DNA of 64,000 nucleotides from Escherichia coli (GTDB lineage: Bacteria; Pseudomonadota; Gammaproteobacteria; Enterobacterales; Enterobacteriaceae). The notes beneath the pieces are model-generated. The model was not told where the DNA came from, did not search any database, and worked only from the letters and a program-made list of their open reading frames with translations. The stretch lies in assembly GCA_025544715.1 (NCBI GenBank), contig GCA_025544715.1_4109.1; one strand, written 5' to 3'. Below, piece after piece: positions 14,444-52,921 of this stretch (its first letter is position 1; the number at the start of each line of letters is the position of its first letter). A program made the translations under genes and the position numbers.

Positions 14444-14459
14444 AAACGAGGATATCTTT

Positions 14460-14948: not shown

Positions 14949-14963
14949 TAAAGGAAATAGACA

Positions 14964-15359: not shown

Positions 15360-15365
15360 TTATAA

Positions 15366-15393
15366 AAGCACTCTTCGGAGTGCTTTTCTTTTT
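15366..15393 (+). terminator. Rho-independent terminator
   Basis: AAGCACTC-ttcg-GAGTGCTT followed by TTCTTTTT. Confidence 0.8.
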
Positions 15394-15460
15394 GAATAAA
15401 TATTTCTATATATAATTCCCAGTACTGAACTAGTACTTTACTGATTTAAAGGAATAAATT

Positions 15461-18922: not shown

Positions 18923-18929
18923 TATAACG

Positions 18930-18955
18930 GGCGTTCTTCGGAACGCCTTTTTTAT
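18930..18955 (+). terminator. Rho-independent terminator
   Basis: GGCGTTC-ttcg-GAACGCC followed by TTTTTTAT. Confidence 0.85.
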
Positions 18956-19001
18956 ATCATAAATAAATCAAATGAATGAACGAATTATATGGAGTCCAAA
19001 A

Positions 19002-25000: not shown

Positions 25001-28000
25001 CATTGCTCGTATTATTAAAGATCCAACACAGCTAAACATTCCTTGGTTCGCTCCAATCAATGAAAACTCGTTTATTCTTAGTAATATGCAATTTAAAGTT
25101 AATGATGATACCAGTATTTTAACTGTTTCTTATTACATGGATAGTACTGAAGTTGTTAAACATGACCAGTATCAACTATGTAAAGAAGGTGACAGCTATA
25201 ACTTTAACCCACTAATTTGGGATTCAATGTGGAACTCACTAATTGGTCAAGAAACAACTGAATCAGGTTCTGTGATTAATTTATTATATCCAGATGTTGA
25301 TAACGGTTTAGGATCAAACAAAACTTGGTTCCAAAATGTTATAGAAGCTCGTAGAAACTTTGTAGAAAGTGCTAATAATTATTATAGGTCACAAAACATA
25401 ACCACTAATAGTGTTGTTATGGAAGATGTGTTTAATGTTAAAACCACTGAAGTTAACCCGAATGAAGTTTCTTTCCGTGTATTGTCTTACAATAATGAAT
25501 TAGTTATTGCAGTTGAAAGTGATAAATTTAAAGAAAATGACGCTGTTATTTTAAGTACTAGTGGATATCTACCAAATCCATTAACTTCTAGTGCTGTTTA
25601 TTTTATTCACTTCGACGAAAATGGATATATTCAGTTAATGAATAGTCCAGCAAACGCGGGTAGTGTTGTTACTATAACGTTAGAGAACAAAGGTGAGGGT
25701 CAACATAAAATGATTAAACAATCTGATTATGTTGAATCACTAGGAACTTCATTGGACATGACTCAGTACTGGTCATATGCTGATTGGTATGATGTTGGGT
25801 ATGATAGTAACACGACTTATACTCAAGAGTCAAGCTTAGAAGATGCTAATACTAAAAACTACCAAGTTGGTGATATTATCAGAGTTACCGATAGTGAAAA
25901 CATTTGGACATTGTATATTAAATCACAATCACGCGATTCAATTTATTGGAAAGCGATTGGTCGTGAAAACAGTACAGTTGAACTCAATGATATGCTTTAC
26001 GCAGATTATAGTGTTCATAATGATAATGGTTCACTAAGCAATCGTGAAATCAACGTTCGTAAAGCACTCGCTTTACTCAAAAATTCTTTCGATTTACATC
26101 AAAGCGAAATTGTTTTTGATATGGTCAAATATGTACATGTTGAACAAAGTGTTGTGGATTGGGTATTTAAAACATCATATATCTATATTGTTGGTTTGGA
26201 ACAATCATTAGTTCAAAACTATTCAAACGATAATTTGATTAATCAAATTGTTGAATATTTTGAAGAAGTTAAACCTTATAGAACTAAAATTCGTTCACAA
26301 ATAGAGCAAAAGACATCTGATGATGATTTAATAAAAGGTCTGTGTAATGATTTAGATCCTAATGGATATATTTTCGTTGACGGTTCTTGGGTCAAAACTG
26401 AAAAAGATATTTGGGATTATGAGTACGCTCAATTTAATGAAATTACCCAAAAATGGGAACAGGTAGGTTCACTACCAAGCGATTTCATTACACCAAATAG
26501 AAGATTCCAAGAAATTGATATTATTATGCATTACGATAACATTCAATGTAAACCAAATGCAGATTTGGCAAGCATAAATGAATTAGTAAGTGTTAATAAC
26601 AAATATCAATCCAATGAAAAGGATGCTGTTAGTAACTATGAATTACAACGTTATATATATTCTTTCCCAGAATATAGTGAAGAAACTTTCGATCTTCTTA
26701 TTGCTTATCAAATGCAAATCTACTATCCAGAATTGGATGTAACACTAGGAACAGCATATGGCGTTAACCAGTGGTATAAAGACCATGCGGAAGATTTAGA
26801 AGCAACTGATGAATTTACTGCTACATTGGAGCGTGTTTATAAAGAATCAACGCAGAACGATATGTTTACTGACCTTAGACAATATGTTCAGTATAACACA
26901 TTGGCAAACCGTTTGAAACTTTATAAAGATATAAGTGATGAGAAAATTCACGATGAAGTTGGTTGTGGATTTAGTGGACTTACTTATAATGACAATCCTA
27001 GTACTAGACTTCCATTAGGCTTTTCTTCTAGTAATGATTATAACTATGGATATTTTGAAATAAGCAGTGAACTGTATCAAAAATATATTTCATTAATTAA
27101 AGATAAAAATCCTGACGCATCAGACTATGAAGTAAAAGTTAAACTTGAAGTTGAGTATGGTGTATATGTTTATCGTTATGATGAAGTCGGTGGTGATACC
27201 CGTTTCTATACTGATGCTATTCACGTATTAGCAGGTATGAGAGGGTTATTCGACAAAGACGCTACTGATAAGTACGAAAAAGCTGAAGAGATTCTTAGTA
27301 AAACCCCAATTGATATCTATGCAATTACAATGATTCCAAGAAAATATGTTTACTTAAATGTTAACGGTGTATATCAAAGTATACCTGATGAACAAAGTAT
27401 TGATGATTTCATGGAAGATTATTTTATCACAAATGGTGAAATGATTGAACTAGCTGAAATAAATCTAGATGATTTACCACTAGATCAAAATAACCCAATG
27501 TATTCAGATTATCAATATATACTTGATAGTATTACTGAAGCTAAGTACTTCAATGATATGAATGCATTTGATAACCTAGCATTAGAATCTCAAACTTCTT
27601 CAATAAAATGGGAAGTTAAAGATGATGAAGTTGATCCTTATATTGTGGATATATCTGATATAAACCCTTCTGGGCGTGATGTTGGTCAAATTAGATTTAC
27701 AGTTGATGGATATGGGTTTGACAATGTATCTCTTGTACAACTACGTGATAACAGCAGATATCAAACTGAAGGTATGGCAATTATCAATCCATATAAACAT
27801 ACAGAAGCAATTGTTAGTATTCCTTCATATGCTAAGATTGAAAATGATATTAATAAAACAACATCGAAGTTTGATGAAAAATATTTCTATCGTGTGAGAT
27901 CTATTAATAGCTTAACTGAAGCAGAAATAGTTGACAATGACCTATCTGATGGTGATAAGGTGATGATTTTCACTCCTGATGGTGAAGATTTTGTGAGATA

Positions 28001-36978: not shown

Positions 36979-37088
36979 TGTTTAAGCCCTTTTAGTAGTG
37001 AACTTTCATTTATTTATTAATGATAACGAAATGTATTTTGTACTGATAAATATTGGTATATGACATTAACTCATACAAGGGAAATATT

Positions 37089-38204
37089 ATGACAATTTCA
37101 TTTAATGGTTCATGTAATAACTCCGGCATCAAAAGTCTAGTTATTAATGGTGCTGGGCATTTAATTGTAACCTATGCAGATAACACAATTCAAGATTTAG
37201 GTCTTGTTGTAGGACAGAATGGCGAGAATGGTAAAAACTTTTATCCTAATGAGATTGGTTTTGAAATTCCTTCCGAACAATTTAAAGTTGGTGAACCACT
37301 TGGGTGGTGCTACTTAAGCTTGGCTAACAACACCAGTACTCTATACTTTAAATCAAACGATGCACAAGATCCGACAAGTACATGGATTAGTGTTGAGTTT
37401 GGTAAAGGTGATACTGGTGAAGCGGGTAAGCCGTTCCACATTGATAGTGCTGGGACTTCTTTCCCAACAACTGGTCTTTTTAATAACTATACATTTTATA
37501 ATACTCAAGATGGTAAGCTTTATTTCTATCAAAGTGTAACTGCCACTTGGAGTGATGGTATCCCTTTCCGTGGTGAACAAGGTCCGCGTGGTCGTTTCCA
37601 TATTGATAGCAGTGGTGATCAATTTCCAAGTATTGAAAATCTTCCAGTTGATTATTGTTTTTATAACAACACTGATGGAAAACTATATTATGTTGATGAA
37701 GTAACTACAACTACCCCTCCTTCAAAAGAGTGGAGTGATGGTATTCTATTCCGTGGTAAAGAAGGTCAGCAAGGTATTCAAGGTATACAAGGCGAACCAG
37801 GTGCACCAGGTAAAGATACAATTTCTATTAGAAATACCATAGATAGCTCATGGACTAACGCACTATTAGTTATTGGTACATGTCCTGCTGGATATGTAGT
37901 TTCTAATATTGATGTAAACGTTATACAACCTTATTCTCTTCCTGTAACTGATATGTTTGTACGTTTTGGTGGTGAAGCACAAGAAGATATTGGCGGGACG
38001 GTAATTGCACCAACTTCCTACTTTGATATCAATCGTCAGATGCGTTTTATTGTTAATGAAACTAATCATGCAGCATCCGATGTTGATGAAATTATTTCAT
38101 GTGTATTCAACGATTCTGTTAACAACAGTCCTTATGGAAAAATGGAAATTATTTGTACTCTTTCATGGCAAGCTCCTATCCAACCGATTCAAGATAATAT
38201 TTAA
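37089..38204 (+). CDS. Tail fibre-like protein with short collagen-like (Gly-X-Y) stretch and internal duplications
   Basis: ATG 37089 with AAGGGA RBS (ORF track TTG 37053); GKEGQQGIQGIQGEPGAPGKD; duplicated FHIDS(A/S)G...DGKLY(F/Y)...WSDGI(P/L)FRG units. Confidence 0.55.
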   Translation: MTISFNGSCNNSGIKSLVINGAGHLIVTYADNTIQDLGLVVGQNGENGKNFYPNEIGFEIPSEQFKVGEPLGWCYLSLANNTSTLYFKSNDAQDPTSTWISVEFGKGDTGEAGKPFHIDSAGTSFPTTGLFNNYTFYNTQDGKLYFYQSVTATWSDGIPFRGEQGPRGRFHIDSSGDQFPSIENLPVDYCFYNNTDGKLYYVDEVTTTTPPSKEWSDGILFRGKEGQQGIQGIQGEPGAPGKDTISIRNTIDSSWTNALLVIGTCPAGYVVSNIDVNVIQPYSLPVTDMFVRFGGEAQEDIGGTVIAPTSYFDINRQMRFIVNETNHAASDVDEIISCVFNDSVNNSPYGKMEIICTLSWQAPIQPIQDNI

Positions 38205-38218
38205 GGGAGGATGTCATA

Positions 38219-40360
38219 ATGGCAGTATTTTCTAATTTTGAAGGAACTATGCAGCCCAAATTCATATTGGGGAAAAAAGGTGCTTCAATAAATTTTATCA
38301 ATGATTCAGTTTCTATAAAAGATTATCTAGGAGAACAGTTCCTGCCACTTAAGGTAGGAACTTCATCTGATCCTAATTCAGCAGTTAACGTAAAATATCT
38401 TGAAGATAATCCTAATGCATTATTTGGTGTTGTACCACCTACCGATGATATAGGAAAGAACAATAATACGTATTTTCAAATTGATGAAGATGGTATTGTT
38501 GATATTTTTGCAAAAAGCAATGGTACATGGGTAAAATCATTATACATTAATAAAAAAGTTCTATCCAGTAAAAATGGTGGAGATTTCATCGGACTTATTA
38601 CTGGAGGTACAGTTCAACAGGCACAGTTTTATATAACACCAGAAGAATTTGGTGCTAAAGGTGATGGTGAAACTGATGACACTGCTGCTGTAAATTTATG
38701 TGCTGCTTATGCTAAAGAAAATAAAATCCAAATTCAGGCTGGTGGTAATTACCGTATCAAAACTGCAATATATCTGGAAGATGTAACTTGGTTTGGGGGA
38801 ACTATTACTGGTAACGGTGGTACTATGGTATCCGTTATTAATTCCCAAATACAATTTGCAACACTTACTGGATGTTATTTAAAATTCTTCGGTGGCGATG
38901 GTAAGTTTTATTTTAATAAATTTATAAACATCACAAGTACTGCTGCATTTTTAATGCAAGGCATGACACAACCAGGTACAATAGATTTTTGCTTTAATGA
39001 AATGACCCAATGTAAGTATGGTGTTCTTCAACAAGGTACTGGTGAGAAAATGAAGGTTGGTAGATATTCATATAACCACATACATGATATATATGGTGAT
39101 GCAATTGAACTAAACGTAATTAACTCACACTATCCTGATGGTTTTGTTATTGAAGGGAACATAATTGAAAACGTTGATGGTTCTAACGCTCCAATCCCAC
39201 TTTCAAACTGGGGTATTGGTATTGGTGTTGCTGGTTCTGGTCCTTATGGTTTAGATGCACCAGATACACAATATGTCAGAAACTTTGTTATTAAAAATAA
39301 CAGACTATATAATGTTAGACAATGTATCCACGTTGAATTAGGCATGGACTTTAAAATACTTAATAATGAAGTTTATCCATCATCTTTAGTTTCTGTTGGT
39401 ACTGGATTAACCACTGCTGGTGTTATAACTTATGGTTCAAAGGAATTCATTATTGATGGATTGACTGGTCATTTGCTTAATGATCCTTCTATCACAAATA
39501 GAATGGTTTCAATAAACTGGGGTGTAACTTCTGGTCGTTTTGCTGGACCACCTAGAAACTTTAAAATTTCTAATCTCTATATTCCAGAGTCTTCTATACT
39601 TGTTTATACTTCCGGTTCTGACAATTGGTTAAATAATACAGAATTGAGCAATATCACCTGTTCTAAAATTCTTTGGCGTGGTTTACCATCATCATCTAAA
39701 TTTAGTGATATTAGAACTAAAGAATTAGATGTAATTGGTCAACATCTCTCTACAGAAGGCGAAGGTGGTGGTATCTATACTCGCTCTAAATATACTTATA
39801 CTAATTGGACTAACTGTGTTGTTCAAGATGATTGTAATGTTTCAAAATATAGTTTTTCTAAAATGTATGTAGACAGAATAGACCAATCATCTAATAACTT
39901 TAAAGTTACAACTGCAATCGATGGTACAGGTCACCGTGGCCCAGTACTGATACCTGTAGTTGAGCAATATTATATTCCATACGATACTTTTCCTGGGGGA
40001 CGCTATTTCTCTGAAGGTACGATTATTCATAAACAATCGGGTGGAAAATATATTGTAACTGTTGGTGGTTCTTTTTTCGGAAAATATGACACAATTAGAC
40101 AAACGGTAGCAGGACAAACATACATAGAAGCATTGGGTGTGTCATGGGGTGAAAACCAATATGCAAAAGCTGCTGGTACTGAGATTATTATATCTGGTGC
40201 TGGTGAAAATGGTGGTGATTTGAGAACGTATATAACTCGTGCAGTGTATGTTGTAAACAACGTATATAGAATTGATATTGCAGATCCTATCATAACAGCA
40301 ACTGCCGCTGGTGCAGCATTAAAAGCCGCCCAACCCGTAACTTACATAACCCTACCATAA
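38219..40360 (+). CDS. Tailspike with pectate-lyase-like right-handed beta-helix (putative polysaccharide depolymerase)
   Basis: 713 aa; conserved N-terminal anchor (MAVFSNFEGTM...) followed by FGAKGDGETDDTAAV, a hallmark of pectate-lyase-fold tailspikes. Confidence 0.7.
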   Translation: MAVFSNFEGTMQPKFILGKKGASINFINDSVSIKDYLGEQFLPLKVGTSSDPNSAVNVKYLEDNPNALFGVVPPTDDIGKNNNTYFQIDEDGIVDIFAKSNGTWVKSLYINKKVLSSKNGGDFIGLITGGTVQQAQFYITPEEFGAKGDGETDDTAAVNLCAAYAKENKIQIQAGGNYRIKTAIYLEDVTWFGGTITGNGGTMVSVINSQIQFATLTGCYLKFFGGDGKFYFNKFINITSTAAFLMQGMTQPGTIDFCFNEMTQCKYGVLQQGTGEKMKVGRYSYNHIHDIYGDAIELNVINSHYPDGFVIEGNIIENVDGSNAPIPLSNWGIGIGVAGSGPYGLDAPDTQYVRNFVIKNNRLYNVRQCIHVELGMDFKILNNEVYPSSLVSVGTGLTTAGVITYGSKEFIIDGLTGHLLNDPSITNRMVSINWGVTSGRFAGPPRNFKISNLYIPESSILVYTSGSDNWLNNTELSNITCSKILWRGLPSSSKFSDIRTKELDVIGQHLSTEGEGGGIYTRSKYTYTNWTNCVVQDDCNVSKYSFSKMYVDRIDQSSNNFKVTTAIDGTGHRGPVLIPVVEQYYIPYDTFPGGRYFSEGTIIHKQSGGKYIVTVGGSFFGKYDTIRQTVAGQTYIEALGVSWGENQYAKAAGTEIIISGAGENGGDLRTYITRAVYVVNNVYRIDIADPIITATAAGAALKAAQPVTYITLP

Positions 40361-40376
40361 AGGAGATTATATTAAA

Positions 40377-41273
40377 ATGGCAGTTTTTTCTAATTTAGAA
40401 GGAACCATGAAGAAGTCCTTCATTCTTGGGAAGAATGGTGCACAGATTACCACAAATGGTAGTGTTGTGCAAATTCAAAACTACTCAGGAACACAACTTC
40501 TTCCAATTTCAGCAGGTGAACCAACTGCAAACACACACTTGGTTACATTGGGATATTTAAACGCACACAGTGGTGGTGGTAGTTCTGGTATCTTACGTGG
40601 AACAACAGCACCATCCGATTCTATTGGCCTAGATGGTGACGTTTACTTTTTGGTTGATAGTACTAATGTTCTTCAAATTTATATTAAAGATCTTGGTATT
40701 TGGAAACCATTTAAAGGTAGCTCACCTGGAACTGATAGCTCATATGTAACTACTGAAATAGTTCCTGTTTCTGCATTTACATTAGTACCAGATACTACTG
40801 ATCATTATACTTACACACTACCAGAATCAGTTCATGGTAGAGGTTCTGATATTATGATTCAACTACAAGGTGACCCAGGTAATGTTGCATTGGAATCAGT
40901 ATTCCAAACCACAGTAACAGTTAGTGGTATTGGGGATATAACAATTGATGTGATTGGTCAAATCACAGATTATGCAAGTGTTAAAGTAAACATTATAGGA
41001 GCAACCACAATGACAGTACCTTATAGTAAATTAGTAAACCAAGCAGATTGGGTTTCTAGTGCTGGTGATTTCACAATCACTATTCCAGCATCCGAACACA
41101 ATCAAACCCCAGATAATTTGTATATTTCAATTTATGCAAATAAAACACCTGGAAGTGTTGCGTCATCTCCATTCGAGTTGGTAGTGACTGATACACAAAT
41201 TAGTAGTACTGGTGATGTAATCTTCACTTCTGATATTTCTTTCAGTGGTAAGATTGTCATCTCCGGTAAGTAA
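40377..41273 (+). CDS. Tail fibre/spike protein sharing the N-terminal anchor of the preceding tailspike
   Basis: 298 aa; N-terminus MAVFSNLEGTMKKSFILGKNGAQ... is homologous to the 38219 gene, C-terminus unrelated; strong terminator downstream. Confidence 0.55.
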   Translation: MAVFSNLEGTMKKSFILGKNGAQITTNGSVVQIQNYSGTQLLPISAGEPTANTHLVTLGYLNAHSGGGSSGILRGTTAPSDSIGLDGDVYFLVDSTNVLQIYIKDLGIWKPFKGSSPGTDSSYVTTEIVPVSAFTLVPDTTDHYTYTLPESVHGRGSDIMIQLQGDPGNVALESVFQTTVTVSGIGDITIDVIGQITDYASVKVNIIGATTMTVPYSKLVNQADWVSSAGDFTITIPASEHNQTPDNLYISIYANKTPGSVASSPFELVVTDTQISSTGDVIFTSDISFSGKIVISGK

Positions 41274-41280
41274 AAAATTA

Positions 41281-41315
41281 ACCAGACTTGTTCTAAATAA
41301 GTCTGGTTTTTTATT
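41281..41315 (+). terminator. Rho-independent terminator
   Basis: ACCAGACTT-(9 nt loop)-AAGTCTGGT followed by TTTTTATT. Confidence 0.8.
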
Positions 41316-41410
41316 ATATTTGCTTTTGTCAAATAATGTATTAATTGTTGGATAACAGCATAATAAAACTAAATATATACATATTAACAAGGTTATAATG
41401 GAGGGTATAA

Positions 41411-44400
41411 ATGTACTCAATAAAAACTGACTTAGATATTACTGGTGCTGGTACGGTTGGTAAGGATCTTTTAGTCAAAGGAAATGCTGTTTTCAATAAT
41501 AACCTAACTGTAAATGGTACTGTAACTTTTGCAAATGCAACTTTTACTGCCATTGAATCATCAACTGCCAACATTACATCTACTTTAGATGTTGGTGGCA
41601 AAGCAACACTTTCTGGTGGTCTTGGTGTTGAGGGTAATACTACAATCGGTAGTGCAGTTGTCGGGTCTGATACAGCAACAATTAATTCAAACGCTACCTT
41701 TAACGGTACTGTATCAGTTGGTTCTGATTTTACACAAACTGCTGGTACAACCACTCTACAAGCAACTAAAGTTAAAAACTTAGAAGTTGCTGAAACAACA
41801 GCATTTAAAGGTAATATTACTGCTGATGTTGGCACTACTGCTGCATTTGATAAAATTACTGCTAATACCGCAGAAATTACTAATGTAAGTACAACCGATA
41901 TTAGTAGTACTGGAACTGCTACTTTTAAAGATGTAACCATTAGTGGTACATTAGGTGGTCAGTTTAATCTTTCTGACTTAAATGCAGTAACATTGAACGT
42001 TTCTGGTGCATCTAACCAACAAGGTGCAGTAACTTTCGGTGCTAACGTAACTGGTATTAACAGTACTGCTACTTTTAAAGACATTCGTATTGGTTCTAAC
42101 TCTGAATCACAAACCTTCAGATTAAGCTTCCCTTACACTGCTCCTGGTAAACGCCCAACTGTTATTCTACAAAACGAAATTCAGTCCGAGCTAATGTCAC
42201 CTGCAAACTTGACAGTATTGACCTCTGCTTCTTTTGGTAATGCGTCATTATCTTCTTATGGTATTACTGGTAATGGTCTAAACAAATTGGATTATCTAAC
42301 AGTTTCTGGTAACAACACACAATCTCCAGACACACCACTATTAGAAGTTCAAAAAGGCAAAACCAAAGTTGCTGACTTTGAAGTAACCGGAACTGCAACT
42401 ATTCCAAATATTGAAAGTACTGGGACTGCTAATTTTAATAACATTAATGTTTCTGGTCTTCTTGGTGGATCATTCCAACTAGACGATATTAATGCAGTAT
42501 CATTGAACGTTACTGGTGCAACTTCATTAGTTGGTGGTGTTACTCTTGGTTCTAATATTACTGGTTATAACAGTACTGCATCCTTTAAATCTATCAGCTT
42601 AGGCCAAAATAGTCAAGATGCGGCAGTGAAACTAGGTTTTGGATATACTGCACCTGGTCAACGTCCAACAGTTATTCTACCTAACGAAGTTCAATCAGAA
42701 GTCGTTTCTCCTTCTACATTGAACGTTCTTAAAACAGCAACTTTCGGTAACGCTTCGCTTTCCACTTATGGTATTACTGGTAACGGTCTAAACAAACTAG
42801 ATTATCTAACTATTACTGGTAACGAAACACAAGCTCCAGGTACACCATTCCTACAAGTTGGTGGTAAAGCAATTCTTAATGATGTTGATTTTACTGGTAC
42901 AGTAACTGGACTAACTGTTGATGTTAGTGGTCAGGATCTAACACCTAATTCTGTTGTCGCGGCAGCAAATATTAAAGGTGCAACACTTGAAAGTACTGGT
43001 AACACTACTGTGGGTGCTAAACTAACTGTTACTGGTGATATTGCTGGTACAACTGCAACTCTTTCTGGTGCATTATCTGCTGGTTCAGTAAGTTCTGGTA
43101 CTATTACTGGTACAACTTCAGTTTCAGCACCAACAATTAGTGCATCTACTGAAGTAACTGCTCCTACTATCACTGCTAGTGGAACTTTAAGTGGTCAAAC
43201 CATTAACGGAACTAATATTAGTGCAACAACTCTTACTGCACCAACTATTAGTGGTAATACAAACTTTACAGAAAATGTTGATATTACTGGAAATCTAACA
43301 GTTACTGGTACAGTAACCCCAGGTACAATTGATTTGAGTACTACTGATGTTAGTGCTAAATCAATCACTACTACCGCTGGTGCAAATATTGGTGGCGATC
43401 TTGTGGTTCAAGGTTCTTTTGATTTATCAGCAGCAGACATTAACGTTAAATCACTAACTTCTTCTGGTATTGTTAAAAGTAATGACCTTGTTAATGCTAA
43501 CGTACTTCCAGTACTTAATAGTACAACAGTCACATCAACAACTGTTAATGCTGATGATATAACTGTTACTGGTTCTGCAACTCTTGGAACTGTATATGCA
43601 AGTACATCTGTTCTAGTTGGGTCAACTTTAACTGTAACTGGTGAAACTACAACTGCATCTTTGGTTACCCCAACCATTTCAAATGCAAGTGGTGTCACTA
43701 TTTCCAATAATACAAATGTAACTGGTGATCTAACCGTTACTGGTGCAGTTATTCCAGGCTCTATCGATCTAGCAACAACTGATGTAAGTGCGAAATCTAT
43801 TACTACTACTGCTGGTGCGACTATTGGTGGTAACCTAACTGTTAATGGTACAGTAGATCTTACTACTGCTGATGTTACTGTCAAATCTTTAACTAGTACT
43901 GGTGCAATTGTTAGTAATGAATCCACAATTAGTAGTGTTCTACCTAAACTTCAAAGTACTGATGCAACTATTGCAACCCTTGGTTCAACAACTGCAAATA
44001 TTACTAATTTGAATGTTACTGGTGCATCTACCGTAGCTGACGTAACTTCTTCAGGTAAAGTTAAAGCAGTTTCTGTAGAAACCCCAACAATTAGTAACGT
44101 TGATGGTGTATCTATTTCCAATAATACATCTATTACTGGTGACCTAACAGTTTCTGGTACAGTAACCCCAGGTGCGATTGATTTGAGCACAACTGATGTA
44201 AGTGCGAAATCTATTACTACTACCGCTGGTGCAAATATTGGTGGTGATCTTGTTGTTTCTGGTACAGTTGATTTAAGTGGTGCTGATGTATCTGTTAAAT
44301 CTCTAACAAGTACTGGTATTATTACAGTTAGTAGTGCAGAAGGTATTAACGTTCTACCTAAAGTTCAAAGTACTGAAGTTACAGTGTCTGCTCTAAATGC

Positions 44401-47390
44401 AACAAATGCAGTAGTTTCTGGTGATGTTTCAGCAGCAACAGCTTCAATCTCAGGTGCAATTACTGGTGGTTCAGCAACACTATCTGGTGCTGGAACTGCT
44501 CTAAATGTAACTAATAATGCAACTGTCGGTGGTACACTTACTGTTGGTTCTATTACTTCAGCGGCAGAAAATGTATCCATTACTAAAAATACCGCTGTCA
44601 CTGGTAATTTAGCAGTATCTGGAACTCTAACTGCTGGTGTTATTGATTTGAGCACAACTGATGTTTCTGTGAAAACTTTAACTTCTCTTGGTGACGCAAC
44701 AGTTCGTGGTAACTTAACTGTTGATGGTTCTATTGACCTAAGTTCCGCAAACATCGTTGGTGTAACACTAGAAAGTACTGGCTCCACTACCGTAGGTACT
44801 GATTTGATACTAACTACTGGTAACATTACAGGTAGTCCATCTATTTCTGGTAACTTAGGTGTAACTGGAACTACAACTTTAACTGGTGCAACAACAGTTT
44901 CAAACACATTGAATACTGCTGGTAAACTAACAGTTAATGCTGGGGGAATTCAGGTTGTTGCAGGTGATATACAAGTTGATTCTGGAACTATTAATGCTCC
45001 TAGTGCTAATATTTCTGGTAGTTCAACACTTAATAGTGCTACTGTAACCACTACACTCGGTGTTACTGGGGCAGCAAGTATGAATGGTGGTTTAACTGCT
45101 TCTACTTTGGATGTAACAGGTGATAGTACAGTACAAAAACTAACTGTTAAAGGTGTATTTGTTCCTGAAGGTGGTTTGGACCTTTCCGGTGCTGATCTTA
45201 ACGTGAATAGCGTAACTGCTGCAACCACATTAAGTGTTACTGGTGCTAGTACTCTGACTGGTGGTGTTTCCACTTCAACAGTATCTGCATCCGGTAAGGT
45301 AACCGCACAAGAACTAAGTACTGGTACATTGGATGTAACCACAAATGGAACTGTTGGTGGAACTTTAGGTGTAACTGGTAAAGCAACTGTTGGCTCACTA
45401 GATTCAGGTGCAATATCTGCTACATCTGGTACATTTAGTACTACACTGGATGTAACTGGAGCAGCAACATTTGGTAATAATGTTAATATTACTGGCACAT
45501 TAACACCAGGTGCATTGGATTTAACTAGTACTGATGTAGTTGCTAACAGTCTTTCTGTTGCATCAACCCTACATTCAGATGGCAATGCAACAATTGGTGG
45601 TACATTAGGTGTAACTAGTGCAGTAACTGCTCCATCAATCGCTCTTAATGGTGAAGGTACTGCGTTGGCAGTTACTAATAACGCAACCATTGGTGGTACA
45701 TTAGGCGTAACTGGTAAAGCAACTGTTGGATCACTAGATACAGGTGCAATCTCTGCAACATCTGGTACATTTAGTACTACATTAGATGTGACTGGTGCAG
45801 CAACCTTTGGTAATAATGTTAATATTACTGGCACATTAACACCAGGTGCATTGGATTTAACTNNNNNNNNNNNNNNNNNNNNNNNNNNNNNNNNNNNNNN
45901 NNNNNNNNNNNNNNNNNNNNNNNNNNNNNNNNNNNNNNNNNNNNNNNNNNNNNNNNNNAACTAGTACTGATGTAGTTGCTAACAGTCTTTCTGTAGCTAC
46001 AACTCTACATTCAAATGGTAACGCAACCATTGGTGGAACATTAGGCGTAACTGGTGCAGTAACTGCTCCATCAATCGCTCTTAATGGTGAAGGTACTGCA
46101 TTAGCAGTTACTAATGACACAACGATTGGTGGTACATTAGGCGTAACTGGTGCTACAACTTTAGGTTCTCTAACAACCTCTGGTGCAGTTAAAACTGGTG
46201 CTAATGTTATTATCGGTACTAAAATTGGTGAACAACCAGAGACAGTTCAGATTTTCCCTAATACTTACATTGCAGGCTCCTTGCGTGTAGATGGTGGTAT
46301 CAACGCTGATATTGACGTTAGTGGTCAAACAATTGAACCTTATGCAGTTGTTGCGGCTGACACTATTAGTGCAGCGGGTAATATTACTTCTGGTGCAGAG
46401 TTGATTTCCAAATCAGCAACTATTGGTGATGTTGGTTCACAAAACAACAACTTAACAATCAATGGTAACGTAGTTAACAACGGTAACTTTACAGTAACTG
46501 GTCTACTAAACGCAACACTAAACCAAGCAAACTCTGACGTGGCTGTTAAATCATTAACTGCAACCAACAGTGTTGCTGCTGGTACTAGTATTACCGCAGG
46601 TACAAGTATTACTGCAACTGGTCTACTAAAAGGGAACACCCTTGAAGTAACTACTACTGGTTCATTTGGTGGTGCAGTAACAATGTCAAGTGGTGCTAAC
46701 ATTACTGGAACCGTTGGAATTACTTCTGGTAACCTAACTGTTGGTGGTGATATTTCTGCAACAGGTACTGCAACCCTAGCAGCAACTTCAGTAACTACCA
46801 TTACTACTTCTGGTGCAGCAACACTTGCTAGTGCATCTGTTACTGGAGCAGCAACAATCGGTGGTACTTTAACTGTTACTGGTTTAATGACTGCAAATGG
46901 TAGTGTTGTTTTAGGTGACGCTGCTGCTGATACATTAACTGTCAATGCAACATCTTCTTTCAAAGAAAATGCAGTATTTGATAAAGATGTAACTGTAACT
47001 GGTCAATTAACAACTACTAATGCTGACCTAACTACTACAACAGTAACTACTAAAAAATATGATGTTATTCCTAATCAAGTAACTTCTTCTGTTATCGCAC
47101 CAACTGGTACTTGGACCCCAGACGGTACTAGCAACGTATACTTTATCACTCTAGATCAAGATACCACTCTAGCACCAATCACTGGTCTAATCGGTGGTGG
47201 TAAAGCATCTTCAGTATACATTTATGTGAAACAAGATGCAACAGGTAATAGAAACTTTACTACTGATGGTACTTATGCGGTTGTTGATGGCACACTGAAC
47301 AAAACTGCAAACTCTGTAACTATCTACCAAGTCATTTATGACGGTGTGAGTCCAGTAACAGATATGTTTATTGCACAACGTACTGCTTAA
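41411..47390 (+). CDS. Giant repetitive tail fibre protein (about 2,000 aa or more), interrupted by an assembly gap
   Basis: ORF track splits this into 41411..45964 and 46281..47390, but the stop after the N-run is a frame artefact: sequence after the gap continues the same repeat in an open frame (TSTDVVANSLSV...). Thr/Gly/Val-rich beta-strand repeats of about 112, 140 and 155 aa. Confidence 0.65.
45377..46150 (+). repeat. Tandem 336 bp (112 aa) near-identical repeat units within the fibre gene, copy number unresolved
   Basis: Unit starting GGTAAAGCAACTGTTGG at 45377 recurs at 45713, and a third partial copy follows the gap. Confidence 0.8.
45863..45958. other. Assembly gap (96 N) inside the tandem-repeat region of the giant fibre gene
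   Basis: Run of N; flanking sequence is the same position in consecutive 336 bp repeat units (pre-gap ends ...GGATTTAACT, post-gap begins AACTAGTACT...). Confidence 0.95.
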
Positions 47391-47406
47391 TAATTATAAT
47401 AATAAA

Positions 47407-47431
47407 GGTGTCACTCATTTTGGGTGACACC
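47407..47431 (+). terminator. Stem-loop after the giant fibre gene (no clear U-tract)
   Basis: GGTGTCAC-(9 nt)-GTGACACC; downstream sequence is not T-rich. Confidence 0.35.
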
Positions 47432-47454
47432 ATCATAACAAGTGAGGTAGTTAT

Positions 47455-48234
47455 ATGTTCACATATGTGAAAGGAAATTCAAAAGAAAATTATGAATTGG
47501 GAAACATTATTTCCAATCCAATTGGTGTAAAAGGACTCAAAGAACGTCCTGGTGCAACACCAGAAGATCCACAAACCTATCGTTATCTTTATAGTGATAT
47601 TAGAACTCTTTATGGTATTTCAAGTAAAGATGGTTCACCAGTAGAACCAAATGATGCTGTTAGAAAAGAAGAAGGTTTTTGGTGGTTAGTGTATAAAAAT
47701 GTTGGAAATGTTAATGCTATTGAACAACCGTTGGAGTTTATTAAATTAAAAGATGAAAATCAACCTATTGTTGAATTTTTTGAAGATGCCACAGAAGAAT
47801 ATAAAGCACTAACTGTTCTTAAAACATATCATTATATTGATATACCAATAGCAGATGTTAAAGCTGATTTAAAAGCAAGAACTATTTCAGAACGTACAAA
47901 TCGTATGAATTCTGGTTATATGTTCAATGGTCATCGTTACAGTACTGATATGTCTGGTCGTCAAATGCTTCTTAATTATTATACACAAGTCACTTCAGGT
48001 TCTGAAAGTGTTTCTATTTTTCTTGATGACGCAATTGTAAAATTATCTGCTGCTGAAATGACACAACTATACACTGAAGCCTTTGCTATGATTGAGCAAT
48101 TGTTTACAGAATGTGACAATCAGTGTGCTGCAATTGACGCAGTTGATGATTTAGATCCTGATGCAATTTATAAGGCACAACAAGCTGCAACTTGGGTATA
48201 TGAAGGTGTTGATATTCCTGAACGTATACGTTAA
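47455..48234 (+). CDS. Hypothetical protein (259 aa), possibly fibre-associated (assembly/chaperone?)
   Basis: ORF with GAGGT RBS between two fibre genes; function assigned by position only. Confidence 0.45.
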   Translation: MFTYVKGNSKENYELGNIISNPIGVKGLKERPGATPEDPQTYRYLYSDIRTLYGISSKDGSPVEPNDAVRKEEGFWWLVYKNVGNVNAIEQPLEFIKLKDENQPIVEFFEDATEEYKALTVLKTYHYIDIPIADVKADLKARTISERTNRMNSGYMFNGHRYSTDMSGRQMLLNYYTQVTSGSESVSIFLDDAIVKLSAAEMTQLYTEAFAMIEQLFTECDNQCAAIDAVDDLDPDAIYKAQQAATWVYEGVDIPERIR

Positions 48235-48242
48235 TTAATAAT

Positions 48243-48275
48243 AAAGGTCAACTATGGTTGGCCTTTATTTGTTTC
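48243..48275 (+). terminator. Rho-independent terminator (AAGGTCAA...TTGGCCTT family)
   Basis: AAAGGTCAAC-tatg-GTTGGCCTTT (one G-U pair) followed by ATTTGTTT. Confidence 0.7.
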
Positions 48276-48291
48276 AATATAAGGAAAATAT

Positions 48292-49905
48292 ATGTATAAT
48301 ATAAGAACAGATATTATTGTAAATGGTGATATCAGCTATGACGGTGATCTAATAGGTAAGATTCCAGTACCTGATATTAGTTCTAAAAATAAAAATATTT
48401 TAATTCATGAAAGTGATGGTTTATATGTTCCAGATAACACTATTAACTATCAAGGTGGTACTGGTATATCAATATCCTCTAATTTAATATCTACAAAAAT
48501 CAGTTCAACTGAAGGTAATATCCTTAGTAATGATTCTAACGGGTTGTATGTTCCTGATAATACGGCAAGCTACATAGCTGGAAATGGTATCAATGTTAAT
48601 ACAAATGTTATATCTGCTAAAGTGAGTTTAAATTCTGGAAACATTCTGATTTCTGATACTAATGGTCTGTATGTTCCTAATACATCAATTGTGTATTCTG
48701 AGGGAACTGGTGTAGAAATAAGTAATAATACTATTTCAGCTAAAATAAGTACATCTCCTAATAACATAGTTACTATTGCAGAAGGTGGTTTATATGTCCC
48801 TGATAATACAGTAACATATACAGGTAGTGACAGTATTAAAATAGATAATAATATTATATCATCAAAAGTAAGCACATCTTTAGGAAATATCCTTACAACT
48901 GATAGTACGGGTCTATTCGTACCTGATAATTCGATAACGTACAATGCGGGTAATGGGATTGTAATTAGTGATGAAGTGATTAGTGTTGAGGTTGACCCTA
49001 CGCCAGAAAATATATTATCTTCTACTAGCAATGGTTTATTTGTTCCTAACAATACTGTAACTTATAATGCTGGCAACGGAATTTCAATTAACTCTGATAT
49101 AATAAGTGCTAAAATTAGTTCTACTTCTGGTAATATACTATCTACTGACAGTACTGGATTGTTTGTGCCTAATACAAGAATAAATTACGTTGGTGGTACT
49201 GGTATATCAATTAGTTCAGAAACAATTTCAACCAAAATAAGCACAACACCAGGAAATACTTTAACAACTGACGTAAATGGGTTATATGTACCGACTGGTC
49301 CATCCTCATATACTGCTGGAAATGGTATAACTATTGACAGTAATGTTATTTCGTCTAAAATAAGTAATACCTCTGGTAATATATTAACATCAGATAGTTC
49401 TGGATTATTTGTTAATGGTAATAATACTACTAACCTAGTTCGTAGAAAAAGAGAATTATATTATTCAAACTTAAATATACAATTCACAGATGGAATTGAA
49501 CAGAATTTAATTCAAATACTTAAATCATTGACCCCCACTAGTGGAACACTAGATAGTTTCTTCAATACAACAAGTAATAAGCTAAATGTTTATAATTTCA
49601 ATTCATCTCTAAATTTCAAATTAAATATATACGGTACATGGACTACTAGTTCATCTAATATGAGTTTTGCTATTAATTTTACAAATACTCAATTTAATAA
49701 TATTAACCAAGTTAGAACACCAACAATCACAGTTGATACTATTTCATTTAATACATTTTTAAGTGTTGATGAAAATGGTAACCTAGTAACTAATGGAACA
49801 CCTATTACGTTAATGTCACATGGTGGCAAGTTTACAGTCACTAATTTATTATTAATTGCTGAGCAAATCGTTCCACCTTCAATGAGTGGGGTTTCTGTAG
49901 TGTAA
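48292..49905 (+). CDS. Tail fibre-like protein with about nine tandem ~40 aa repeats
   Basis: 537 aa; repeated unit ...S(D/N)GLYVPDNT..Y.(A/G)GNGI.I..N.IS.K(I/V)S...GNIL...; N-terminus MYNIRTD... resembles the giant fibre N-terminus MYSIKTD.... Confidence 0.55.
   Translation: MYNIRTDIIVNGDISYDGDLIGKIPVPDISSKNKNILIHESDGLYVPDNTINYQGGTGISISSNLISTKISSTEGNILSNDSNGLYVPDNTASYIAGNGINVNTNVISAKVSLNSGNILISDTNGLYVPNTSIVYSEGTGVEISNNTISAKISTSPNNIVTIAEGGLYVPDNTVTYTGSDSIKIDNNIISSKVSTSLGNILTTDSTGLFVPDNSITYNAGNGIVISDEVISVEVDPTPENILSSTSNGLFVPNNTVTYNAGNGISINSDIISAKISSTSGNILSTDSTGLFVPNTRINYVGGTGISISSETISTKISTTPGNTLTTDVNGLYVPTGPSSYTAGNGITIDSNVISSKISNTSGNILTSDSSGLFVNGNNTTNLVRRKRELYYSNLNIQFTDGIEQNLIQILKSLTPTSGTLDSFFNTTSNKLNVYNFNSSLNFKLNIYGTWTTSSSNMSFAINFTNTQFNNINQVRTPTITVDTISFNTFLSVDENGNLVTNGTPITLMSHGGKFTVTNLLLIAEQIVPPSMSGVSVV
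48409..49420 (+). repeat. About nine tandem ~120 bp coding repeats (approximate bounds)
   Basis: Recurring GLYVPDNT / GLFVPDN-containing units in the translated ORF. Confidence 0.6.
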
Positions 49906-49914
49906 TAACATATT

Positions 49915-49946
49915 AAGGTCAAGCCTATGCTTGGCCTTTTCTTTTA
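49915..49946 (+). terminator. Rho-independent terminator (same family as 48243)
   Basis: AAGGTCAAGC-ctat-GCTTGGCCTT followed by TTCTTTT. Confidence 0.75.
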
Positions 49947-49992
49947 ACTAAAATAAATACATCATATAAATCTATTCTGAGGAAATATTTAA

Positions 49993-51957
49993 ATGAGTAT
50001 AAATCGAATTAGAGGTGATGGTGGTGTAATTATCGATAGTAAATCTTTTTTAGAGTTACCGAAAGCACCATCAAAAGAAACCGCTGATGTAATAAGATCA
50101 GGGATGATTAGATACAATAAGGAATGGAAATCATTTGAAGGTGTTCTGGATTTTGAAGATGGTACTATGGCATATCGCCGCTTTGCAAACTTAGATGCAA
50201 ATGGTAAACTTCTTACTTCCCAATTACCAGATTCAGTAACTAGTGGTTTACAGTTTGTTGGTACATACAATCCTATCCCAGATGATATTGATCCACCTTT
50301 AGCACAAACACCACTACCAGCACCAGCAGCATCACTAAATGGTGATTATTATGTTGTTCGTGGTATTATGGATGCAGCACAAGCACACTTTGAAGCAAAT
50401 AACCCACAAACAAGTCCGGTTACATTTACACCTACGAACCCAACTGGTCAAGGTAATTGGATTGAAATTTTATATTATATTGACTCCAATCCAAATATAT
50501 CTGGTGCTAAACTTGTAACATACGCTTTTGCAAGAATTATTACTGCATCTATTCCTAGTACTGGTCATGAAGGTCTTGAAAATTTAGCAACTGATGCTGA
50601 CTTAACTAAACCATTTGCTTCTGGCGTTCCAATGAACCAGACCGCACTATCAGATGGTGATTGGATCATTATAACTGAAGATAAAAACATACGTCTACGC
50701 CAGTCAAGAACAAGCATTTCTGCTGCTTCTGTATTATATGACAATACAGTAATGATTGCAAACCATCGTCAATTTAGAACGAACGCAGGAACCGTACAAA
50801 CATCCATAGATAACGTTGTGATTGAATGTTTGCGTAGAACTGGCGATTCCATGTATAATGATGGAACAAGCGGCTCAGGGCGTTTTGGTGTGGTCTATGG
50901 TAGTGCAGCAGCACCAGCATTGACATTTAATAACAATCCATTTGATCCAACCAATAACCCAGGTAATGATCCTACCAAATGGTCAGACGCTAATACTGGT
51001 ATATTTCATCCAGCAGATGATGCAATTGGTTTCAGTACTGCTGGAACTGAACGTATTAGAATTAATAATTCAACATTAACATTATACCAAACAACTTCAA
51101 CCCCAGCATCAACCCCAGTACTAAGATTTGATAATGCAACCAATACTAATGTTGGACTAAGTGCTAGTAGTAATATTATTTCATTTAGTTCAATGAATAA
51201 AGTACAAGTTGAATTTAAAAATGGTGAAAGTGCGTTTCATGGTAATATTGTGGTTGATGGTACAAGCACATTGACTGGTGATACATCAGCTAGTAATATC
51301 ACTGCTAGTGGTAATTTGAACATTCAAGGTAATACCATATTAGGCGATGCTGCATCAGATACAATTACAGTTAATGGAGTTAGTACGTTTACAGCAAACA
51401 CCAATTTCAATGGAACAACTAATAAATTTAAAAATATAAATCTATTAGCTAATGGTATAATTACATTAGAAAGTACTACTAACCAAAGTACAATCCAATT
51501 AGTTAGTTCTGATTTAAAACTATCAATGGGTAATTATGCTGATGTAAGTATCTATGATAATGGAACTATAAGAGCACGTTTTAATAGATATGGTATCCAA
51601 TTACCAGTACTAGCTACTATTGATAACTCTGTTGGCGTTGATGGTATGATTGCATACTCCAATACCGAGCGTACTTCAATGCAAAAAGTTCAAGGTCAAT
51701 GGGTTCCAATTGGTTCAGGTTCAGTGAGAACCGATGCTTTTACCATTTCATCTTGGGTATTAAGTGGTAACTACTACACCCTTACTGTAACAGCCTCAAA
51801 CATCGTCACAGCAGAGATACAGGAACAGGTTAGTCCTGGTGTCTATACTCGTGTTGAGGTCGATAGCGTTACGTTTAACGGCACTAACGTAGTGTTTAGT
51901 ATACCTTCAACTCCTGATGTACGTTTCGACGGAAGAACATTGGTAACAATTAGATAA
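49993..51957 (+). CDS. Tail fibre protein (654 aa)
   Basis: Last gene of the plus-strand fibre block; Thr/Ser/Asn/Gly-rich C-terminal half; strong bidirectional terminator downstream. Confidence 0.5.
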   Translation: MSINRIRGDGGVIIDSKSFLELPKAPSKETADVIRSGMIRYNKEWKSFEGVLDFEDGTMAYRRFANLDANGKLLTSQLPDSVTSGLQFVGTYNPIPDDIDPPLAQTPLPAPAASLNGDYYVVRGIMDAAQAHFEANNPQTSPVTFTPTNPTGQGNWIEILYYIDSNPNISGAKLVTYAFARIITASIPSTGHEGLENLATDADLTKPFASGVPMNQTALSDGDWIIITEDKNIRLRQSRTSISAASVLYDNTVMIANHRQFRTNAGTVQTSIDNVVIECLRRTGDSMYNDGTSGSGRFGVVYGSAAAPALTFNNNPFDPTNNPGNDPTKWSDANTGIFHPADDAIGFSTAGTERIRINNSTLTLYQTTSTPASTPVLRFDNATNTNVGLSASSNIISFSSMNKVQVEFKNGESAFHGNIVVDGTSTLTGDTSASNITASGNLNIQGNTILGDAASDTITVNGVSTFTANTNFNGTTNKFKNINLLANGIITLESTTNQSTIQLVSSDLKLSMGNYADVSIYDNGTIRARFNRYGIQLPVLATIDNSVGVDGMIAYSNTERTSMQKVQGQWVPIGSGSVRTDAFTISSWVLSGNYYTLTVTASNIVTAEIQEQVSPGVYTRVEVDSVTFNGTNVVFSIPSTPDVRFDGRTLVTIR

Positions 51958-51995
51958 TAAAAAAGGGAGAACATTAGTTCTCCCTTTTCGTTTAT
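51958..51995. terminator. Bidirectional terminator between the last fibre gene and thyA
   Basis: A-run then GGGAGAAC-atta-GTTCTCCC then TTTTCGTTT. Confidence 0.85.
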
Positions 51996-52921
51996 ACAGC
52001 CATAGGTGCTTTAATTGTTGGCATTGGGTTGTAATTCACTAATTTGAAAGAATCCATTGTGAAATCTTCAATATTAGTAATTGTAGGATCAAGCCACAAT
52101 TCAGGTAATTCACGAGGTTTTCGCTGTAGTTGTTCTTTTACTTGTTCAACGTGGTTTTTATAAATGTGACAATCACCACCATTCCAAATAAATTCACCAA
52201 CATCTAAACCAGTAATTTGTGCAATCATATGAGTTAGTAGTGAGTAACTACTGATATTAAATGGAACTCCCAAAAATAGATCAGCGGAGCGTTGATGTAG
52301 AATGCAGCTTAGTTTCCCTTGTACTACACAAAATTGCACAAAGCTATGACAAGGTGGCAACGTCATATCATCAAGCTCACCAACGTTCCAGGCACTTAGA
52401 ATGTGGCGACGACCATATGGATCGGAATGTATACCTTTGATTAGTTCTTGTAATTGGTCAGTTGTACGTTTCATAACAACACCATGTGAACCAGTATAAT
52501 CGATAACTTTGTATCCTTTATCTTTTAATTCTTGAATTTCTTCAGTACTGGAACTAAATTTATAATCTTCCCATTCACGCCATTGCTTACCATACACTGG
52601 ACCCAATTCACCATCAGTATAACCAAGAGCAACGCCTTGATTTAGGTAATTATCTGTCCAAATTGTTTTCTTTTCAGTATCACGAGTTCCATGCAAAATT
52701 TCACAAAGGCGACGCTCATCATGGGAACCTTCAATAAACCATAGTAATTCTGAAGTCATTGCTTTCCAAGCTAGACGTTTTGTCGTCACTGCTGGGAAAC
52801 CATCGTTAAGGTCGAAACGCATTTGTTGACCGATAAGTTTGATTGTCCCAACACCAGTACGGTCAACGCTTTCTACGCCTTCATCTAGAATTTTTTGATA
52901 TAGTTCTTGTAGTTGTTTCAT
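51992..52921 (-). CDS. thyA: Thymidylate synthase (ThyA family)
   Basis: 309 aa; catalytic LPPCH, HQRSADLFLGVPFNISSYSLL, GGDCHIYKNH, C-terminal IKAPMAV; Asn in the PFNI motif implies a uracil-type substrate. Confidence 0.9.
   Translation of the reverse strand: MKQLQELYQKILDEGVESVDRTGVGTIKLIGQQMRFDLNDGFPAVTTKRLAWKAMTSELLWFIEGSHDERRLCEILHGTRDTEKKTIWTDNYLNQGVALGYTDGELGPVYGKQWREWEDYKFSSSTEEIQELKDKGYKVIDYTGSHGVVMKRTTDQLQELIKGIHSDPYGRRHILSAWNVGELDDMTLPPCHSFVQFCVVQGKLSCILHQRSADLFLGVPFNISSYSLLTHMIAQITGLDVGEFIWNGGDCHIYKNHVEQVKEQLQRKPRELPELWLDPTITNIEDFTMDSFKLVNYNPMPTIKAPMAV

Follow-up and report, generated by a model that had tools for sequence, protein, structure and literature searches.

The module studied here (positions 37089 to 51957) lies within a 64-kilobase (kb) stretch of DNA, analyzed in full and called the window below, that is ~97% identical to the Asteriusvirus phages phAPEC6, 121Q, and G17. 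A megablast comparison of positions 37000 to 52000 with a phage collection recovered 11 genomes at 97.1 to 97.3% identity over 88% of the 15 kb, including phAPEC6, E9.1, SP27, 121Q, G17, and Sharanji, all of them Asteriusvirus jumbo coliphages. The plus-strand gene order in 121Q and G17 is the same as that in the window (gp574, gp573, gp572, gp571, gp570, and gp569), and in these loci a convergent thymidylate synthase gene comes next after the module. The nucleotide (nt) identity per gene to 121Q, BAU.Micro_ELP-22 (hereinafter ELP-22), and CRJP21 is 95 to 99%, with two exceptions, namely, the first part of the long-fibre gene (90 to 95%) and the gene that starts at position 48292 (81 to 89%, or absent). 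Given this degree of identity and the shared gene order, we assign the stretch by its sequence to the known tail-fibre module of 121Q/PBECO4/phAPEC6-type (Rak2-like) jumbo myophages of the genus Asteriusvirus. A preliminary description of this DNA had listed seven consecutive co-oriented genes, and all seven are present on the plus strand. They are referred to below by their first nucleotide; product lengths are in amino acids (aa), and the features of the module are as follows.

37089..38204, plus strand: "tail protein" of 371 aa, homologue of 121Q gp574, phAPEC6 gp253, and RaK2 ORF062; first gene of the module
38219..40360, plus strand: predicted colanidase tailspike of 713 aa, anchor plus Phi92 gp150-type body
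40377..41273, plus strand: virion protein of 298 aa, homologue of 121Q gp572
41280..41308, plus strand: intrinsic terminator closing the gene group from 37089 to 41273
41411..47390, plus strand: long repeat-rich tail fibre, homologue of 121Q gp571 and phAPEC6 gp256
45863..45958, no strand: run of 96 N, an assembly gap inside the long-fibre gene
47455..48234, plus strand: DUF4376 protein of 259 aa, homologue of 121Q gp570
48244..48265, plus strand: terminator T1, upstream edge of the 48292 cassette
48292..49905, plus strand: predicted accessory knob fibre of 537 aa, with N-peptide, 41-aa repeats, and Sf6-type knob
49915..49938, plus strand: terminator T2, downstream edge of the 48292 cassette
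49993..51957, plus strand: conserved protein of 654 aa, homologue of 121Q gp569 and RaK2 ORF060
51960..51989, no strand: bidirectional terminator separating the module from the convergent thymidylate synthase gene

We interpret this array, which adjoins baseplate and tail genes, as a host-recognition module (a reading to which we give a probability of about 75%) in which several receptor-binding or receptor-destroying proteins of one virion would each combine an N-terminal attachment element with a distal part that sets specificity. A lineage-specific N-terminal element would dock each protein onto the tail. The first such candidate element is an ~110-aa MA(V/I)FSN module (an ~65-aa N-terminal part and one short repeat unit) in the 38219 and 40377 products; the second is an ~23-aa peptide, MY(S/N)I(K/R)TD, in the long fibre (41411 to 47390) and the knob fibre (48292). 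The colanidase presumably strips the colanic-acid capsule, and folding of the long fibre is probably assisted by the product of the next gene, a Tfa-type protein with a DUF4376 domain. The diversity of the module would arise from insertions or deletions (indels) of whole genes, changes in repeat number, and the occasional fusion of foreign distal domains to a resident anchor, with no programmed switch.

The first line of evidence is the anchor shared by the 38219 and 40377 products. The preliminary description held that the two proteins have a common N-terminus and differ downstream, and alignment bears out both points: aa 1 to 110 match at ~38% identity (BLASTP E 9e-20), and nothing significant aligned beyond the anchor. 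These are the only two copies of the ~110-aa anchor in the window (nt 38219 to 38548 and nt 40377 to 40712), and in the 40377 product two predicted beta-sandwich domains come after it. Within the window, then, the same conserved anchor is joined to distal domains of unrelated kinds, a colanidase and a beta-sandwich protein, in two receptor-binding protein (RBP) genes whose N-termini are homologous. Searches with tblastn recovered the anchor in 72 phage records, and every match listed is from a jumbo (Rak2-like) phage; it occurs at two places per genome in Asteriusvirus-type records and at one in GAP32, CBB, and RaK2. In K64-1 (L008 18001-18348) and RaK2 (L010 6001-6348), the gene at the gp572 position encodes the 115-aa anchor alone, with no distal domain. 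A homologue search with this 115-aa anchor yielded just three short, partly frameshifted proteins and was replaced by an exhaustive one, in which a two-copy anchor profile was searched against 1.84 billion representative proteins. This search resolved the anchor into two parts, residues 1 to ~65/70 and a short unit at residues ~65 to 111. The former is the very first part of proteins ranging from 113 to 1366 aa, which behind residues 1 to ~70 carry, among other distal parts, BNR/sortilin-type propellers, a right-handed beta-helix, and a Peptidase_S74 spike. The latter is repeated many times within unrelated fibre proteins. Comparison of the anchor with the CBA120 D1/XD and T4 gp10-like domains gave no detectable sequence similarity and no confident fold similarity. 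At aa ~43 to 65 of the anchor (window positions 40377 to 40574; "..AGEPT..THLVTLGYL"), there are weak profile matches (E 0.08 to 0.3) to the "DPTSGKHAATKDYVD" motif of the phage hyaluronidase HylP and to the neck motifs of trimeric autotransporters, which hints that the anchor may end in a generic trimer-neck element.

A further occurrence of the anchor is on an uncultured contig (L013, positions 10001 to 20688; SRR18476386), which has a second fibre cluster adjoining nrdD/nrdG. This cluster encodes two MAIFSN-anchor spikes (780 and 705 aa), both of which carry the precomputed Pfam annotation PF27114 (Phage_tail_beta), a family not reported in our own Pfam scan, and two large proteins with another common N-terminus (MSKKI.G.L.V). 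We considered the contig as an unrelated phage lineage with both anchors and rejected this, as it is itself a fragment of a Rak2-like jumbo phage; hence, it represents reuse of the anchor within the group and not its spread beyond.

In the distal part of the 38219 product, aa 96 to 712 match residues 11 to 623 of Phi92 gp150 (Protein Data Bank [PDB] code 6e0v) with E 1.8e-235, so that the whole catalytic body is homologous to a solved colanidase; the product also matches phrog_6117, and its similarity to WcaM is weak and far below the cut-off. The body is 57.5% identical to that of phi92 in tblastn and is found in Justusliebigvirus-type (phi92-like) phages as well; at 30 to 37% identity it occurs in several other unrelated phage groups, behind different N-termini. 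By homology, then, the 38219 product is a predicted colanic-acid depolymerase tailspike of the Phi92 gp150 type, and the 121Q record likewise labels gp573 as involved in colanic-acid degradation. Since the body matches Phi92 gp150 and recurs with different N-termini, the protein is a resident lineage anchor fused to a widely shared enzymatic body. In phage JP4 (L011 8379-8984), the colanidase gene encodes just 201 aa: the stretch from aa 152 to 662, between two G(D/A)GE motifs, is deleted in frame, and the anchor and the last ~50 aa are kept at 98 to 99% identity.

The long fibre, labeled long tail fibre in the 121Q record (gp571) and matching phrog_4549 (tail fiber), is interrupted in the window by 96 N at 45863 to 45958, with a +1 frame offset across the run; this is why ORF (open reading frame) callers split the gene into 41411 to 45964 and 46281 to 47390. 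Both aa 1 to 1444 and the part after the gap match one 1841-aa gene of 121Q in tblastn, and the residues on either side of the gap are adjacent in CRJP21 (L004 12723/12727). The gap falls within a 336-nt (112-aa) tandem repeat, and the spacing across it is 436 nt, that is, 336 + 96 N + 4. The run looks like an unsized scaffold gap, suggesting that the assembly behind the window is a draft or a scaffolded one. With the gap closed in the manner of CRJP21, the fibre has 1959 aa, one 112-aa repeat more than its counterpart in 121Q. Internal repeats of 336 nt and of 414 to 510 nt are present in the gene; Tandem Repeats Finder reported nothing at a score of ≥60, because the repeats are too diverged at the DNA level, and they were assessed instead by a DNA repeat search and by periodicity at the protein level. 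Between the stop codon of the long fibre and the DUF4376 gene there is a strong 11-base-pair (bp) hairpin (47407 to 47431; GGTGTCACTCA...TGGGTGACACC) with no T run after it; in UE-S1, a terminator is annotated at the equivalent place.

Directly downstream of the long fibre, with 64 nt from stop codon to start codon, lies the 47455 gene, whose product has a Pfam DUF4376 domain (PF14301) at aa 135 to 236 (39.2 bits; cut-off, 25). DUF4376 is the conserved C-terminal domain of Tfa-type tail-fibre chaperones, which are encoded directly downstream of their fibre (PMC7882524, PMC10579305). A DUF4376 gene follows the long fibre in every genome having one (GAP32 and all of the Asteriusvirus loci), and both are absent from the K64-1 and RaK2 modules. 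On account of the above-threshold domain, the position of the gene, and its co-occurrence with the long fibre, the product, labeled a structural protein in the 121Q record (gp570), is probably a Tfa-type assembly chaperone of the long fibre. It resembles Mu U/TfaMu, gp27 of Alteromonas phage V22, and A5 gp9 in having a C-terminal DUF4376 domain and a gene directly 3' of the fibre; it differs from them in that its N-terminal 130 aa have relatives detected only in Rak2-like phages, and its chaperone activity is predicted. Turkey5 (L005 9399-20786) and Ec-M-J (L006 16407-27443) each have two long-fibre paralogues in tandem that share their N-terminus, and a single DUF4376 gene follows the second of them; in Ec-M-J, frameshifts or sequencing errors break both the upstream paralogue and the colanidase into two ORFs apiece.

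The second fibre, encoded by the 48292 gene, has three parts: an N-peptide of 23 aa (MYNIRTD...), a 41-aa unit repeated ~8.3 times (aa ~31 to 385; the period is exactly 41 aa, or 123 nt in the DNA), and a C-terminal knob (aa 383 to 525). The knob matches the Pfam family Phage_tail_NK (PF16532) at 97.9 bits (cut-off, 27) and the structures with PDB codes 3rwn (E 4.1e-28) and 4k6b (~E 4e-28), and the C-terminal 143 aa are 42 to 49% identical to many phage knobs. The same knob domain is found in the tail-needle knobs of Sf6 gp9 and HS1 (3RWN, 4K6B). In the 48292 product, however, it sits at the tip of a stalk that is made of 41-aa repeats and follows a fibre-type N-peptide, and not on a P22 gp26-like needle; no needle family was matched, and only the knob part aligned to needle-knob proteins. 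From this stalk and N-peptide we take the protein to be a knob-tipped side fibre and not a tail needle. Homologues of 455 to 578 aa are encoded by PBECO4, UB, ELP-22, and CRJP21, and the gene is absent from 121Q, G17, JP4, UE-S1, Turkey5, Ec-M-J, and GAP32.

The terminators on either side of this gene, described previously as near-identical, are indeed a duplicate pair that is unique in the window. The pattern AAGGTCAA(N2-12)TTGGCCTT has exactly two matches in the 64 kb (48244 to 48265 and 49915 to 49938), against 0.00 expected from shuffles, and the two hairpins have folding energies of -15.1 and -14.0 kcal/mol with T-rich tails after them. They represent two alleles, T1 (type 1) being AAGGTCAAC-TATG-GTTGGCCTT and T2 (type 2) being AAGGTCAAGC-CTAT-GCTTGGCCTT, and these are the two forms in which different genera have conserved the hairpin that follows the chaperone gene. 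In all of the knob carriers examined (the window, ELP-22, CRJP21, and PBECO4), a type-1-like hairpin precedes the gene and a type-2 hairpin follows it. Among the noncarriers, type 1 stands alone at the site in Turkey5, Ec-M-J, and JP4, with a near-identical variant (loop TTAT) in GAP32, and type 2 stands alone in 121Q (identical to T2) and G17, with a close variant in UE-S1. In JP4, the type-1 hairpin is joined directly to the flank that follows type 2 in the carriers. From the order T1-gene-T2 in carriers, the single allele in noncarriers, and the JP4 junction, we conclude that the duplicated terminators are the edges or footprint of an indel of a single gene. The preliminary description had taken them as marking an exchange of receptor-binding domains, which does not hold, as they flank a whole gene instead. 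A crossover between the two terminator copies would delete the 48292 gene and leave either allele, and both of the outcomes so predicted (type 1 alone and type 2 alone) are observed in noncarriers. The knob fibre is thus an accessory gene that brings along a second copy of the terminator before it and comes or goes as one unit; recombination between the two terminators would be the simplest route.

As to the direction of the event, it is quite conceivable, at somewhat less than an even chance, that the gene is ancestral to the 121Q/PBECO4 clade and has been lost repeatedly by T1/T2 crossover, instead of having been inserted recently in a PBECO4-like lineage. The knob-less genomes have either allele (type 2 in 121Q, G17, and UE-S1 and type 1 in JP4), just as expected if the crossover fell in one stem arm or the other, and JP4 and CRJP21 have the same 2129-aa long fibre and differ in the 48292 gene. 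On the other hand, the more distant Turkey5, Ec-M-J, and GAP32 are without the gene and show type 1 alone, which a later gain fits equally well.

For the second attachment element, the preliminary description had claimed a shared N-terminus in the 41411 and 48292 products. What stands of this is a short peptide rather than a domain: the match comprises 9 identities in 23 aa, with E 0.13 in BLASTP and E 0.28 to 0.85 in tblastn against the window, and it is an outlier only when the sequences are compared in register. Because both matches start at residue 1, we scored the N-termini of 1891 ORF pairs in the window without gaps by using BLOSUM62. The 41411/48292 pair scores 38 against a mean of -18.5 (standard deviation, 9.95; z 5.7), a value exceeded by just one pair, 38219/40377; for the knob fibre, the partner ranking next after the long fibre reaches a score of 6. 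It is unlikely, in our estimate, that the resemblance is a coincidence or an effect of composition (A/T-rich 5' ends and beta-helical fibres of the DLxVxG type) with no attachment element behind it. The nonsignificant E values, the shortness of the match, and the recurrence of "DL.V.G" strings within the long fibre itself are what such an explanation can draw on. Against it stand, besides the in-register scores, the first eight residues, MYSIKTDL, which are invariant in ten long-fibre orthologues and paralogues, including that of GAP32, whose fibre is otherwise ~30% identical. Moreover, the codons at the starts of the two genes differ synonymously and the upstream DNAs are unrelated, and hence the resemblance, and its conservation, is in the peptide. 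A third protein family in a fibre cluster, represented by a 199-aa ORF of L013, also starts with a similar string (MAYNVKSDLDV).

How far such elements serve in exchange was examined in seven related loci, in all of which the orthologues are collinear over their full length at 76 to 100% aa identity. What differs between relatives is, first, the set of genes. The Klebsiella Alcyoneusvirus phages RaK2 and K64-1 have a minimal set of three, with no gene for a long fibre, chaperone, colanidase, or knob. In GAP32, this set is enlarged by the full gp572 together with a long fibre and its chaperone, and in 121Q by a colanidase as well. Further additions are another paralogue of the long fibre in Turkey5 and Ec-M-J and the knob fibre in the window, PBECO4, UB, ELP-22, and CRJP21. 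Second, repeat number varies, giving long fibres of 1557 to 2129 aa and knob fibres of 455, 537, or 578 aa. Third, the gp569 homologue of UE-S1 has an internal insertion of ~103 extra aa. Fourth, JP4 has the in-frame colanidase deletion (aa 152 to 662). Thus, of the cassette-style domain exchange on conserved anchors that had been proposed, the shared anchor with unrelated distal domains stands, and the mosaicism expected at the anchor junctions of related phages was not seen in the seven loci. The proposed switchable repertoire finds no counterpart either. The inverted repeats in the module are three weak pairs (27 to 31 nt, 74 to 81% complementary), and neither an inversion system like those of Mu Gin and P1 Cin nor a diversity-generating retroelement was found in the module, whose ORFs are all accounted for. 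A broad receptor repertoire is plausible. We consider it very improbable that the phage actively swaps receptor-binding domains, cassette by cassette, where the anchors end, with the terminators as borders and a switchable repertoire as the outcome. The shared anchor with its unrelated bodies, the presence of the colanidase body in other phage groups, and the reality of the terminator pair would agree with such exchange, but what the terminators enclose is an entire gene, start codon and N-peptide included, and not a domain; the relatives are collinear; the inverted repeats in the module do not exceed 81% complementarity (over 31 nt), and none flank a gene; and the seven genes fill the coding space, so that neither an invertase nor a diversity-generating element could fit.

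Several observations weigh against the module as a set of RBPs docked by common N-terminal elements. Just two of its proteins have been seen by mass spectrometry in phAPEC6 (PMC7247149), and RaK2 gp062 was not detected. No swap of distal domains at the anchor junctions was seen within Asteriusvirus in the seven loci, and the pattern around the 48292 gene fits gain and loss alike. The N-terminal match between the 41411 and 48292 products is very short (~23 aa) and not significant by BLASTP (E 0.13), and the definition of the motif that includes the L013 protein was widened after that protein had been seen. Finally, binding by either of the N-terminal elements is something that we infer from sequence, as are the chaperone action, the identities of the receptors, and the mechanism of recombination; the sequences themselves show the homologies, the limits of the domains, the synteny, the indel structure, and the terminators.

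A module with several RBPs per virion, conserved N-terminal organizers, and horizontally shared distal domains is a well-established design. The modules of 121Q (gp569 to gp574), phAPEC6 (gp253 to gp258), G17, PBECO4, and ELP-22 have the same gene order, with 95 to 99% nt identity per gene. The window differs from these Asteriusvirus modules in combining a 121Q-like backbone with a knob gene of 8.3 repeats that is 81 to 89% identical in nt to its nearest relatives, of 455 or 578 aa, and from 121Q in the additional 112-aa repeat of its long fibre; its sequence also has an assembly gap. Similarly, the branched multi-tailspike systems (CBA120 TSP1 to TSP4, Phi92, RaK2 gp526 to gp534 [PMC10253068], and phiKp24 [PMC9700779]) have several RBPs per virion and related N-termini with unrelated distal domains, and the colanidase domain is common to the module and Phi92 gp150. 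In contrast to these systems, the anchor of the module lacks detectable similarity to CBA120 D1/XD or T4 gp10-like domains, and its role in attachment is a presumed one. In RaK2, conserved N-terminal domains organize the fibre complex (PMC10253068); the experimentally studied fibres of that phage are encoded elsewhere in its genome, and its counterpart of the present module is reduced to three genes. Taken together, our results support two conserved N-terminal elements with variable distal parts, an architecture known from experiments on CBA120 and on the second fibre cluster in RaK2 (PMC10253068); in the present module, the elements would serve as attachment sites. For the peptide, a precedent as a possible docking element is the short N-terminal docking peptide of KP32-type podophages (PMC13352976).

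The sequence, the gene order, and most of the product names are already in public records. In the literature searched, we found no explicit description of the MA(V/I)FSN anchor family, of the short MY..TD peptide, of a chaperone assignment for gp570, or of the terminator-flanked knob-fibre indel. These four are useful annotations of a known kind of system and not a new kind, and the general principle of modular RBPs with conserved N-terminal anchors is unchanged. They provide a map of the likely attachment and specificity pieces, which is what retargeting of these jumbo coliphages, proposed for therapy, would need; they give a probable fibre-chaperone role to a gene annotated only as structural or hypothetical; and the knob fibre accounts for a presence/absence difference between otherwise near-identical phages.

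More tentatively, and with doubts that outweigh our confidence, the ~65-aa MA(I/V)FSN domain and the MY(S/N)(I/V)(K/R)(T/S)D peptide might make up a family-wide "plug and socket" code in Rak2-like jumbo phages. Were this so, whole RBP genes with their own terminators could be added or dropped with the baseplate untouched, the 115-aa anchor-only protein of RaK2 and K64-1 would be a blank plug for an unused socket, and the colanidase remnant of JP4, with its anchor kept and its body lost, would be the same thing caught in the act.

The two outermost genes of the module, 37089 and 49993, are kept in all of the Rak2-like phages examined. The 37089 product is 99.5% identical in aa to 121Q gp574, 67% identical to its K64-1 homologue, and 56% identical to its GAP32 homologue; it matches phrog_13565 (tail protein) with E 6.7e-220 and has a short collagen-like G-X-Y stretch, for which the Pfam Collagen match is weak and below threshold. 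Its homologue in phAPEC6 (gp253; 40.99 kDa) was detected in virions with 65.6% coverage, and gp256, the homologue of the long fibre, was also found in virions by mass spectrometry (PMC7247149). A proposed sharing of the short repeat of the anchor (aa 65 to 112) by the 37089 product was dropped, as a two-sequence hidden Markov model gave no match at E ≤ 0.01 and BLASTP gave none.

In the 49993 product, which matches phrog_14293, aa 1 to 365 and the C-terminus are conserved and the middle is variable and fibre-like. It is 54% identical to GAP32 gp218, and its identity to the K64-1 homologue is 49% over aa 1 to 365 and 33% over aa 527 to 653. A sequence search of the PDB gave no match to it, and a 38-aa segment is common to it and the long fibre (E 3.9e-5). 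RaK2 gp098, an experimentally studied secondary receptor-binding protein, was considered as a homologue of this product and is unsupported as such; the RaK2 homologues of the module are ORF060 to ORF062.

Of the remaining signals, the terminator at 41280 to 41308 has a 13-bp stem followed by a T run (-16.2 kcal/mol; z -5.8), and that at 51960 to 51989 also has a 13-bp stem (-17.5 kcal/mol; z -7.0); both are annotated in G17, the former at the same place. A scan for sigma-70 promoters gave 58 sites, fewer than the 67 in shuffled sequences, and no promoters were assigned. Upstream of the module, a single 3333-aa ORF in the structural region (18972 to 28973) is the counterpart of a very large virion protein of related phages, represented by phAPEC6 gp245 (382 kDa in the proteome table). 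Downstream, the thymidylate synthase gene of UE-S1 (L007 17123-18676) is annotated at 1554 nt, whereas its counterpart in the window has 930 nt, no more than 29% of which aligns in one piece; the UE-S1 gene may contain an insertion, e.g., an intron or a homing element.

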